From NCBI RefSeq assembly GCF_003334335.1, contig NZ_QOWQ01000119.1: a stretch of DNA of 1,160 nucleotides. The stretch is one strand, 5' to 3'. The first letter of the stretch is position 1; each line of letters begins with the position of its first letter. Position numbers and translations under genes: made by a program. The DNA comes from Escherichia coli. GTDB lineage: Bacteria; Pseudomonadota; Gammaproteobacteria; Enterobacterales; Enterobacteriaceae. This document shows, in pieces, positions 1 through 1,160 of the stretch. A model generated the notes under the pieces. That model searched no databases. It was not told the origin of the DNA and saw nothing but the letters and a program-made list of their open reading frames with translations.

Positions 1-201
1 CCATCAGAGCAGGCGTATCGCGTATGGCGTAAGACACCGGAGAAGGCTGCTGACCCGACACTGATTCGAAAGTTACCTGACGGAGAAATACGTCGTTACA
101 ACAGACGGCAGAACATAATTTGTCGTGAGAGCAGGAGGAGCGAAGTTATGCAGCGTGTGCTGGCGTTCTATCGGGGAAACTTTCAGGAGGTGATGGAGTG
201 A
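1..201 (+). CDS. 3' end of an upstream gene (C-terminal 66 codons in window, ...SEVMQRVLAFYRGNFQEVME*); product not recognised, presumed phage early protein
   Basis: Frame 1 is open from position 1 to a TGA stop at 199..201, while the other two + frames hit stops at 30..32 and 62..64. The stop overlaps the GTG start of the next gene (GTGA at 198..201). It is absent from the ORF track only because its start lies outside the window. I do not recognise the protein family. Confidence 0.55.
   Translation, partial: PSEQAYRVWRKTPEKAADPTLIRKLPDGEIRRYNRRQNIICRESRRSEVMQRVLAFYRGNFQEVME
185..190 (+). promoter_or_regulatory. Shine-Dalgarno (AGGAGG) for the DUF4406-like gene, embedded in the 3' end of the upstream gene
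   Basis: AGGAGG at 185..190 lies 7 nt upstream of the GTG at 198, which is near-optimal spacing. Confidence 0.7.
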
Positions 202-500
202 GGGTGAGAGTCTATATCGCCGGTCCAATGACCGGGTATAAAAATTTCAACCGTGAGGCGTTTCACAATGCGGAAGAGGTACTGAAACGGGAAGGGCATA
301 CCGTTTTAAACCCGGCAGTACTTCCGGACGGGCTGACTCAACCACACTACATGGATATTTGCATGGCAATGCTCCGTTGCGTGGATGCGGTTTACATGCT
401 GAAAGGCTGGCAGCAGTCGGCAGGTGCAAGGGCTGAGCTGGCACTGGCGGAGAAACTGGGCCATGCGGTGATTTTTCAGGAGGTGGGCAGTGAATATTGA
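198..500 (+). CDS. DUF4406 family protein (nucleoside 2-deoxyribosyltransferase-like fold), 100 aa, GTG start
   Basis: The N-terminus MRVRVYIAGPMTG...NFNREAF...GHTVLNP matches the signature I associate with DUF4406 / NDT-like small phage proteins (beta-strand, then a glycine-rich AGPMTG loop, then an aromatic FN..AF motif). The ORF is complete with a strong SD upstream, and the family normally begins right at the YIAGPMTG motif, which supports GTG 198 over the internal ATG at 228. Confidence 0.85.
   Translation: MRVRVYIAGPMTGYKNFNREAFHNAEEVLKREGHTVLNPAVLPDGLTQPHYMDICMAMLRCVDAVYMLKGWQQSAGARAELALAEKLGHAVIFQEVGSEY
478..483 (+). promoter_or_regulatory. Shine-Dalgarno (AGGAGG) for the small membrane-protein gene, embedded in the 3' end of the DUF4406-like gene
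   Basis: AGGAGG at 478..483 lies 6 nt upstream of the GTG at 490. Confidence 0.6.
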
Positions 501-729
501 CCCGGCGATAACGATTGATATGGCCCTGAACACCGGCCTGGCACTTCTTGGTTATTTCTACATCATGTTCTGCAGCGGACGATGGCTGTCACTGTTGTTC
601 ATGAAAAAATGGAATAAACGCCGTAAGCAGGAGCAACGCCAGAAGGCAATGGATGCATTTTCGAAGCCTTCGGAATTGACGGCATGGAACCAGGGGATCC
701 AGCTCGCGCAATCAGCAGAGGGGGTGTAG
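490..729 (+). CDS. Small predicted membrane protein, 79 aa: one hydrophobic helix followed by a polybasic segment; function unknown
   Basis: The ORF starts at GTG 490 with AGGAGG 6 nt upstream and overlaps the previous gene by 11 nt (previous stop 498..500); an in-frame ATG at 520 is an alternative start. Residues ~12-37 (ALNTGLALLGYFYIMFCSGRWLSLLF) are hydrophobic, immediately followed by KKWNKRRKQEQRQK, consistent with an N-out/C-in single-pass topology by the positive-inside rule. It ends in a tandem stop, TAG 727..729 then TAA 730..732. No family recognised. Confidence 0.6.
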   Translation: MNIDPAITIDMALNTGLALLGYFYIMFCSGRWLSLLFMKKWNKRRKQEQRQKAMDAFSKPSELTAWNQGIQLAQSAEGV

Positions 730-759
730 TAATCCTTGTATATCGGAGTGAAGAGAAAA

Positions 760-1074
760 ATGACGATCACAAAACAACGAGTAGAAAAAATCATATATCG
801 CCATGAAATGGGACTGAACAGCGATGTCACTGCCGAAGAGGTTTATGACCTGGCTGTACTGGCGCTGAATTTATCAAATATCGCAAACCTGAAGCGATAC
901 GAGCTTGATATGGATGGTTGCGACTCGTGCGGTCAGGATTGTGGCGCAGATATGACTGAAGATCCTGATGGTGATTATGTCCTGTTTGATGACGTGGTTA
1001 AGTTGTTTGAATTTGATACAACCACTCAAAAGTTAGAAATCCCGGCAAAGGAGGCAGCCAGTGAGCAAGATTGA
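760..1074 (+). CDS. Hypothetical small acidic protein, 104 aa, with a C-x2-C-x3-C cluster; function unknown
   Basis: ATG at 760 is preceded by a purine-rich stretch (GGAG 745..748, GAAGAG 750..755), and the ORF runs to TGA 1072..1074. By hand count it has about 24 Asp/Glu against 9 Lys/Arg. Cysteines sit at residues 54, 57 and 61 (nt 919..942). The track's TTG 736 start has no SD and is less likely. Confidence 0.7.
   Translation: MTITKQRVEKIIYRHEMGLNSDVTAEEVYDLAVLALNLSNIANLKRYELDMDGCDSCGQDCGADMTEDPDGDYVLFDDVVKLFEFDTTTQKLEIPAKEAASEQD
1046..1052 (+). promoter_or_regulatory. Shine-Dalgarno (AAGGAGG) for the downstream partial gene, embedded in the 3' end of the acidic-protein gene
   Basis: AAGGAGG at 1046..1052 lies 8 nt upstream of the GTG at 1061. 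Confidence 0.7.
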
Positions 1075-1160
1075 CTATCAGGCACTGCGTGAAAAGGCAG
1101 AGAAAGCAACTAAAGGAAGCTACATCGTAGGGCATACATCTGTTAACCAGCACGGCAATT
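1061..1160 (+). CDS. 5' end of a gene, likely ead/Ea22-like family prophage protein (N-terminal 33 codons in window, VSKIDYQALREKAEKATKGSYIVGHTSVNQHGN...)
   Basis: GTG 1061 has a strong SD 8 nt upstream, and the frame stays open to the window end. It overlaps the previous gene by 14 nt in a different frame. The N-terminal pattern (short leader, then QALRE-AEKAT) resembles what I recall of ead/Ea22-like proteins in E. coli prophages; this is from memory and not verified. Confidence 0.55.
   Translation, partial: MSKIDYQALREKAEKATKGSYIVGHTSVNQHGN

Follow-up and report, generated by a model that had tools for sequence, protein, structure and literature searches.

Three gene junctions in a stretch of prophage DNA from Escherichia coli (the window, 1,160 nt in full, with all features on the + strand) share one build. 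The final codons of the upstream gene spell AGGAGG, and 6-7 nt further on lies (C/G)AGTGA, whose GTG starts the next gene, while the upstream frame reads on and meets its first stop after 4 to 14 nt, counted from the initial G of this start codon. The GTG codons at 198, 490 and 1061 are real, conserved start positions, and the arrangement is probably best explained by conserved GTG starts embedded in shared portable gene boundaries, with probable coupling of translation and with gene swapping through short homology. On comparison of their sequences, the three junctions are of one recurring type, of which junctions 1 and 2 are looser variants, and their common build is a shared portable gene boundary rather than the outcome of three independent origins. 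The initial annotation of this DNA missed that the GTG starts belong to a junction sequence common to many unrelated gene pairs.

The window matches E. coli NCTC9112 at 100% and comes from a lambdoid prophage, where it lies in the nin-like, rightward early operon, 3′ of O/P-like replication genes and a Ren-like gene. The initial annotation had read the genes as those of a phage early operon, and the lambdoid prophage, this position and the conservation of the junctions all agree with that reading. The gene order is Ren-like/DUF977, DUF4406, DUF4752 (frameshifted), phrog_3126 and Ea22-like. The 3′ part of the Ren-like/DUF977 gene occupies positions 1..201 (stop TGA 199-201; RefSeq CDS 11809-12201 of L001), and its product matches phrog_142, annotated as 'Ren-like exclusion protein', with E = 3e-41. 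The Rfam search of the window returned no match at E up to 1, the promoter and terminator scan returned one promoter-like and one terminator-like site, not above shuffled sequences, and the NCBIfam search with the five products gave no useful match. A fourth AGGAGG (133-138), followed by an in-frame ATG at 148, lies within the DUF977 gene; it is not conserved in a relative and was treated as a chance occurrence.

Junction 1 (185..201) consists of AGGAGG at 185-190, a 7-nt spacer, GTG at 198-200 and TGA at 199-201, giving a 4-nt GTGA overlap, and junction 2 (478..500) consists of AGGAGG at 478-483, a 6-nt spacer, GTG at 490-492 and TGA at 498-500, giving an overlap of 11 nt. In junction 3 (1049..1074; AGGAGGCAGCCAGTGAG), AGGAGG at 1049-1054 is followed 6 nt on by GTG at 1061-1063, and the upstream stop is TGA 1072-1074, hence a 14-nt overlap. 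The overlaps first reported at 198-201, 490-500 and 1061-1074 thus had the right coordinates, and the Shine-Dalgarno (SD) sites were rightly placed inside the upstream gene: each is a perfect AGGAGG within that gene's 3′ end, 6-7 nt before the GTG. Predicted pairing with the 3′ end of 16S rRNA is −11.6 kcal/mol at each of GTG 198, 490 and 1061, compared with −2.4 kcal/mol 5′ of the internal ATG 228 and −2.1 kcal/mol 5′ of ATG 520. AGGAGG-N5-8-GTGA has three matches in the window and none in 200 dinucleotide-preserving shuffles, and AGGAGG alone occurs four times against 0.54 expected. The predominance of GTG was also correctly noted, three of the four in-window starts being GTG (198, 490 and 1061) and that at 760 being ATG. 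GTG accounts for about 14% of E. coli starts; taking this approximate background frequency, the probability of at least three GTG starts in four is 0.01. Furthermore, across the whole prophage operon, GTG starts occur at 4/6 overlapped junctions vs 2/19 others (Fisher P = 0.015). The junctions were said to overlap throughout, which is an overstatement, since the 729/760 junction is a 30-nt gap in this window. RNA folding at the start sites revealed no inhibitory or regulatory structure (z = 0.80, −0.29, 0.75 and 0.51), hence none of the kind by which coupling would become obligatory.

Between junctions 1 and 2, the DUF4406 gene (198..500, 100 aa, GTG start) has identical coordinates in RefSeq (WP_021577230.1), which starts it at GTG 198 in all three genomes compared. 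Its product belongs to Pfam PF14359 (DUF4406; E = 8.2e-37, model positions 2-91 of 91 on residues 4-93), and residues 94-100, beyond the Pfam domain, are the junction read in another frame. All 83 loci retain GTG 198 together with its GTGA overlap, and they do so downstream of two unrelated genes. A further in-frame GTG lies at 204. It shows less conservation than the codon at 198 and makes a less likely start: it is GTA in four loci, the nearby GGAG is unconserved and the AGGAGG lies 13 nt away. At the other end, the gene that follows DUF4406 has a GTG start and an overlap of 4, 8, 11 or 14 nt in 75/75 resolvable loci, and at least five unrelated gene families are represented among these followers. 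CAGGAG is kept in 24/24 distinct junction sequences after DUF4406, and the downstream partner switches exactly at the junction. The DUF4406-anchored loci comprise 17 combinations of upstream and downstream families.

Junction 3 is one mismatch from a widespread 17-mer, AGGAGGCAACCAGTGAG, which is found exactly at at least 133 sites in at least 120 viral contigs. At least 123 of these sites are gene junctions, and among the matches listed they bring together 15 upstream and 15 downstream gene families in 36 combinations. Two upstream frames read through the 17-mer to a stop: one ends in ...RKGGNQ and overlaps by 4 nt, the other ends in ...EATSEQD and overlaps by 14 nt. The NTGA form is present at 99 of the 123 junctions listed. 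Around the 17-mer, sequence identity is already down to background after about 5 nt, and single genes have the 17-mer on both sides. Junctions 1 and 2 depart from the 17-mer in spacer sequence or length; they are tied to the motif family by AGGAGG, the spacing, AGTGA and a shared TTTCAGGAGGTG. The junction motif marks true junctions at 171/196 sites; these sites and the junction sites in the DUF4406-anchored loci were picked by a pattern in which GGAG and GTGA were already fixed, and independent evidence thus comes only from the spacer and the flanking columns. In those columns, every junction pair has A directly 5′ of the GTG, and 91% of pairs have G as fifth base of the downstream gene. Near-identical prophages account for many of the loci, and counting by family combinations (17 and 36) is fairer.

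The geometry of the junctions makes coupled translation across them plausible. Ribosomes that terminate on the upstream gene would do so close to a strong SD and a start codon from which they can restart, and the genes would therefore probably be translated in a coupled, roughly proportional way, with the strong SD probably compensating for the GTG. Indeed, the NTGA overlap is the commonest coupled spacing, and coupling falls steeply with distance (PMC12548453, PMC10666635). Another explanation, possible although we consider it the less probable one, is independent initiation, in which ribosomes load de novo at every GTG by way of the strong SD in front of it, the overlaps are incidental and there is no meaningful coupling. 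The perfect AGGAGG at 6-7 nt with its strong predicted pairing could suffice for this, the start sites carry no sequestering RNA structure, and the tail of DUF4406 is merely the junction in another frame. Overlap lengths also shift with the genes that are joined (4, 8, 11, 14, 29, 32 and 47 nt), and therefore look like by-products rather than tuned features. However, the stops at the three junctions lie at a distance from the start codon (4-14 nt, counted from its first base) at which termination-reinitiation is efficient in E. coli (PMC10666635, PMC12548453), the classic coupled NTGA spacing predominates at the listed 17-mer junctions, and coupling and independent initiation can coexist.

The initial annotation regarded expression as probably attenuated, so that the GTG starts would keep the accessory proteins low. 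GTG initiates more weakly than ATG in E. coli, and it is enriched at these junctions. However, the SD core in front of every GTG is as strong as it can be and optimally spaced, as expected of strong rather than weak initiation; attenuation is thus left unsupported, and we consider it unlikely. The Ea22-like gene bears on the same point. Its 5′ part (ead/Ea22-like, 1061..1160; RefSeq WP_033805601.1) begins at GTG 1061, the start also given in RefSeq, and ten PHROG profiles align their position 1 to residue 1 of the protein. Among 57 homologues, the N-termini divide into 30 GTG and 27 ATG starts, split perfectly by the upstream sequence. The allele in Stx1 phage AP005153 starts with ATG and is identical at 99/100 nt, with the opening base of that codon as the sole difference. 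In other phages, the ATG version of this allele sits behind a much weaker SD, GGAGTGAAGAGAAAA. Since the same allele carries ATG behind the weaker SD, the choice of GTG or ATG follows the upstream junction sequence and not the need of the gene.

Convergence would account for the likeness of the junctions if an efficient ribosome binding site were always AGGAGG-N6-NTG, in which case the likeness would be uninformative about descent or recombination. The SD and its spacing are under functional constraint everywhere, and the spacers of junctions 1 and 2 are unlike that of the 17-mer. Nevertheless, the exact recurrence of the whole 17-mer, including the functionally neutral spacer CAACCA, across so many sites and family combinations, the bias in the columns flanking the GTG, and the near-identical alleles that meet at the junction on either side of a phrog_3126 insertion/deletion together make convergence very unlikely.

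The phrog_3126 gene itself (760..1074, 104 aa; RefSeq WP_001300189.1, with the same start) has an ATG start and a weak SD, and matches the phrog_3126 profile end to end (E = 4e-64); an in-frame TTG at 736 may be an alternative start. Stx1 phage AP005153 lacks exactly 301 nt, corresponding to phrog_3126, with NTGA at both ends, and identity flanking the indel is 61/64 on one side and 99/100 on the other. In this comparison, phrog_3126 behaves as a one-gene insertion/deletion. The joint has only 3-4 nt (NTGA) in common, which fits illegitimate recombination plus selection as well as it fits targeted homologous exchange. Under the shared-boundary explanation that we favour, the conserved boundary would provide enough short homology for phage recombinases of the Red/RecET type, and single genes could be swapped, inserted or deleted at the boundary while expression is kept.

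That the start calls are wrong, and that the true starts are the in-frame internal ATGs at 228 and 520, with no overlaps, is scarcely credible: such starts would truncate the Pfam domains, cutting the first 8 positions from the DUF4406 model and 4 from the DUF4752 model, neither ATG has an SD, the Met encoded at 228 falls inside the conserved AGPMTG motif of DUF4406, diverged DUF4752 homologues have ACG or ACA in place of the ATG at 520, and RefSeq places the DUF4752 start, like that of DUF4406, at the GTG (490 in the related genomes L002 and L003; for NCTC9112, the record of the pseudogene starts from 520). A free-standing DUF4752 copy has ATG at the equivalent upstream start position. Comparison of start sites across homologues, which the initial annotation had proposed as a check, thus favours the GTG codons over the internal ATGs. 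The start calls had been said to rest on SD spacing; the spacing does fit, but it is no longer the sole basis, as the GTG starts are now backed by annotation, domain coverage, SD pairing and about 80 related loci.

The 79-aa ORF at 490..729, with its GTG start and premature TAG at 727-729, had been taken for an intact gene. It is instead a frameshifted DUF4752 pseudogene, and RefSeq records it as such. Alignment with L002 places a 1-nt deletion in the T4 run at 658..661, which is T5 in intact copies, and one T added to this run restores a 105-aa DUF4752 protein. By comparison with intact copies, the out-of-frame remainder occupies 662..806 and ends at the original stop, TGA 804-806; intact DUF4752 extends as far as 806 and shares 47 nt with the gene that follows. 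Because of the deletion, the window copy matches only positions 1-71 of 94 of phrog_667, compared with 1-93 for the intact copy, to which Pfam PF15944 also aligns over its whole length (residues 7-90, model 1-84 of 84). The window copy therefore does not match its family at full length and is a broken member of it. An assembly error is unlikely to be behind the T4 allele, which is present in other RefSeq genomes and, with its 79-aa product, in seven IMG/VR loci. A programmed frameshift was also considered and rejected: GCA TTT TCG, the sequence around the T run at 658-661, has no slippery X XXY YYZ heptamer, and no shift is needed for the intact T5 copies to encode the C-terminus of the family. 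Transcriptional slippage would require a longer run than 4-5 T. For annotation, the 79-aa ORF is best treated as a broken DUF4752 gene, and the GTG starts in this region should be trusted and the internal ATGs avoided.

The arrangement as a whole is ordinary and already annotated, and it fits the known boundary-sequence model; it illustrates current understanding and leaves it unchanged. As a worked example of that model, it combines a ribosome binding site, a start codon, an upstream stop and a gene-joining site in one sequence, and such a boundary helps to explain how expression survives shuffling between phages and between left and right early operons. More tentatively, and with considerable doubt on our part, the SD-GTG-stop junction of about 17 nt (AGGAGGCAACCAGTGAG and its variants) could be a selected portable boundary for cassette-like shuffling of accessory genes. 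If so, its embedded GTG and TGA would be kept because they serve any partner in two reading frames, single genes could be inserted, deleted and reshuffled ready to express through short-homology recombination, and the arrangement would come close to an integron-like array of genes, though one lacking an integrase.

The junctions resemble coupled NTGA gene pairs in that co-directional genes meet with the stop at or just past the next start and with the SD in the upstream gene, junction 1 having the canonical NTGA form. They differ in that the overlaps at junctions 2 and 3 (11 and 14 nt) are of less common length than 4 or 1 nt, and, whereas short overlaps are reported to be enriched among subunits of a complex (PMC10666635), the products here are unrelated accessory proteins. 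The region also recalls the nin and ea/b regions of lambda in its position after O/P-like and Ren-like genes (Ren-like follows a P-like gene, as in lambda), in its small, densely packed accessory genes and in its Ea22-like gene. However, no counterpart of DUF4406, DUF4752 or phrog_3126, which carry only DUF or PHROG labels, was found in lambda, and the Ea22-like module lies in a rightward operon here, whereas the same gene module lies in the early-left operon of phage PhiR49_2 and Stx phages. The closest parallel may be drawn with lambdoid mosaicism, for which the boundary-sequence model and recombination on very short homologies have been put forward (PMC3233612, PMC2327257). Conserved boundary (linker) sequences are described at the joints between lambdoid modules (Susskind & Botstein 1978; Clark et al. 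2001, for HK620; both as cited in PMC3233612 and PMC2327257). Like those sequences, the junction is short, is conserved in only part of a group of related phages and has unrelated genes on either side, and mosaic joints lie at or next to it, as the phrog_3126 indel and the DUF4406 partner switch exemplify; as a difference, it is here also the ribosome binding site, the start codon and, in its 4-nt form, the upstream stop.

The window contains five co-directional genes on the + strand. The open reading frame entering from the left (DUF977/Ren-like; stop TGA 199–201) is followed by a DUF4406 gene (GTG 198 to TGA 500, 100 aa), a broken DUF4752 copy (GTG 490 to TAG 729, 79 aa), a phrog_3126 gene (ATG 760 to TGA 1074, 104 aa) and an Ea22-like gene that starts at GTG 1061 and runs past the right end. 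At junction 1, stop and start overlap by 4 nt (GTGA, 198–201), with AGGAGG at 185–190, 7 nt before the GTG; junctions 2 and 3 overlap by 11 nt (490–500) and 14 nt (1061–1074), with AGGAGG (478–483 and 1049–1054) 6 nt before each GTG. The overlaps claimed in the initial annotation are exact and not due to chance, since AGGAGG-N5-8-GTGA has three matches in the window and none across 200 shuffles; AGGAGG alone occurs four times against 0.54 expected. The fourth copy (133–138), within the DUF977/Ren-like gene, precedes an in-frame ATG (148) that would yield a 17-aa C-terminal peptide, is not conserved in the relative locus of E. coli O111:H11 strain 8D (L002), and probably arose by chance.

These junctions belong to a wider class. 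In all 75 resolvable related loci, the gene after DUF4406 starts with GTG inside the DUF4406 3′ end, overlapping by 4, 8, 11 or 14 nt, and these following genes fall into at least five unrelated families. The Shine-Dalgarno (SD) sequence of junction 2 is encoded by Q94-E95, directly after the end of the Pfam domain at F93; CAGGAG is present in 24/24 distinct DUF4406 junction sequences, whereas the Phe codon beside it can be TTT or TTC. Junction 3, AGGAGGCAGCCAGTGAG, differs by a single mismatch from the 17-mer AGGAGGCAACCAGTGAG, found exactly at no fewer than 133 sites in at least 120 viral contigs (IMG/VR, L086–L205). Among the listed sites, at least 123 are gene junctions, joining 15 families on the upstream side to 15 on the downstream side in 36 combinations. 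The 17-mer is read in two upstream frames, ending ...RKGGNQ* (4-nt overlap) or ...EATSEQD* (14-nt overlap), so conservation of the upstream protein cannot account for its conservation. Furthermore, identity between unrelated pairs drops to background within ~5 nt of it in each direction, and single genes, such as an 84-aa 'MSNSARLQLGF...' gene, carry the 17-mer at both ends; tandem Ea22-like genes separated by it also occur in IMG/VR contigs. Junctions 1 and 2 share TTTCAGGAGGTG and AGTGA, their spacers differ from the 17-mer, and by sequence they are its looser relatives. The predominance of GTG starts, reported in the initial annotation without recognition of the shared junction, is on this comparison explained by it.

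Indeed, judged by these alignments, the start codon is a property of the junction, not of the gene. Ea22-like genes start with GTG behind AGGAG-CAACCA-type junctions (30/30) and with ATG when either of two other sequences lies upstream (27/27). In Stx1 phage AP005153, where DUF4752 is immediately followed by the Ea22-like gene, the first 100 nt of the latter (L084 3786–3885) match window 1061–1160 at 99 of 100 positions. The sole mismatch is the opening base of the start codon (A versus G), and the left flank of the gene matches window 700–763 at 61/64. These matches on both sides indicate that the phrog_3126 gene was gained or lost as a single unit of precisely 301 nt, with NTGA at both ends. 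Its product (760–1074) is acidic with a CDSCGQDC motif, and some Stx-phage records name a gene under the phrog_3126 match 'putative zinc-finger containing protein'. In strain 8D, a T insertion (L002 3051–3053, ~window 1047) creates a TAA in phrog_3126, 11 nt before the Ea22-like GTG; the 14-nt overlap is lost, and RefSeq calls this phrog_3126 copy frameshifted.

Junction anatomy, start conservation, the junction common to unrelated pairs and the breakpoints at it are directly observed, and coupled translation is likely from the geometry: terminating ribosomes would be released beside a strong SD, 4–14 nt away from where the start codon begins, and termination-reinitiation works in such stop/start arrangements (PMC12548453, PMC10666635). 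In the main alternative, each gene would initiate on its own and the overlaps would be incidental; overlap lengths do change with the partner gene, although independent initiation and coupling are compatible. Alongside coupling, the conserved boundary could supply short homology for gene exchange, as lambdoid mosaicism is explained in the boundary-sequence model (PMC3233612, PMC2327257); RecET recombination on 5–13 bp is noted in PMC2327257. That the junction itself is selected as a portable gene boundary is a tentative idea that we consider rather unlikely. The expression had also been called probably attenuated, which finds no support: folding revealed no inhibitory RNA structure around the window start sites, and each SD has the maximum possible strength.

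The GTG starts themselves are, on comparative grounds, real. RefSeq already annotates the locus with starts at 198, 760 and 1061 in NCTC9112, and 490 in two related genomes. The DUF4406 Pfam model spans residues 4–93, and a start at ATG 228 (residue 11) would cut off the first strand and with it the conserved YIAGP. Across 83 loci, GTG 198 and its GTGA overlap never vary, whichever of two unrelated genes precedes them; the second in-frame GTG (204) is GTA in 4 of these, its adjoining GGAG mostly being GGCG. The DUF4752 model begins at residue 7 (intact relative), in diverged homologues codon 520 reads ACG or ACA, and a free-standing copy (phage PhiR49_2) starts with ATG at the equivalent upstream position. 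The Ea22-like start position is occupied by ATG in 27/57 homologous N-termini. The start-site comparison proposed in the initial annotation thus upholds GTG 198 across the 83 loci and, through homologue starts, positions 490 and 1061. Predicted anti-SD pairing is −11.6 kcal/mol at all three GTGs versus −2.4 (ATG 228) and −2.1 (ATG 520). Together, annotation, Pfam coverage, conservation and pairing make internal starts at 228 or 520, which would remove the overlaps, unlikely, given the domain truncation, the lack of codon conservation at 520 and the weak pairing.

The initial annotation missed that DUF4752, marked by RefSeq as frameshifted, is broken here. Alignment shows T4 at 658–661 versus T5 in the intact copy, and one added T restores a 105-aa protein (stop TGA 804–806). 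The phrog_667 profile is matched over positions 1–93 by the intact copy and only 1–71 by the window copy, so the conserved C-terminus is encoded in the shifted frame. Intact copies share a 47-nt overlap with the following gene (start 760), whereas the window copy ends 30 nt before that start; since a gap of ~20 nt nearly abolishes coupling in E. coli (PMC10666635), the 729/760 junction is unlikely to be coupled in this strain, unless translation begins at the in-frame TTG 736. This TTG, 6 nt after the premature TAG, has a predicted anti-SD pairing of −12.4 kcal/mol, and its use could bring close coupling back to the broken allele; ATG 760 stays the annotated start. A second, independent allele (5-nt deletion, 72 aa) is common in other prophages, and 18/33 copies adjoining DUF4406 are broken, a pattern suggesting that this small membrane protein is decaying, or being selected against, in lysogens.

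The window matches E. coli NCTC9112 (NZ_LR134079.1) at 100% identity and falls within a lambdoid prophage adjoining yccA. Its rightward operon reads regulator, YdaT-like, DUF1376, P, DUF1627, DUF977, DUF4406, DUF4752, hypothetical, ead/Ea22-like, hokD, DUF968, RusA, DUF1133; DUF1376 occupies the lambda O position, and the DUF977 product matches PHROG 'Ren-like exclusion protein' in a profile search. The lambda order is cro-cII-O-P-ren-nin-Q, and synteny with it places the region in the nin-like, delayed-early section of the rightward operon. The DUF4752/phrog_3126/Ea22-like module lies after the replication genes here (L001), versus in the early-left operon in PhiR49_2 (L085) and AP005153 (L084), the DUF4752/Ea22-like module being near xis/int in PhiR49_2 and Stx phages; the 'phage early operon' label is right in either setting. 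The AP005153 record labels the module area as rearranged repeat 'arrangements' c, e and f. The NCTC9112 prophage also carries a relBE toxin-antitoxin pair, hokD, dicB and three tRNA genes (Ile, Arg, Arg) (L001 7787–8266, 15506–15661, 19764–20013), and several further pseudogenes, including DUF551 and YdfR, indicate partial decay.

The initial interpretation is thus partly supported by the sequence: early-operon context and real GTG starts hold, and coupling is plausible. Overlapping junctions of the NTGA type are textbook material, as are GTG starts at overlaps, and the literature already describes conserved boundary sequences in lambdoid phages. The finding is already known in kind, and the window is a clean example.
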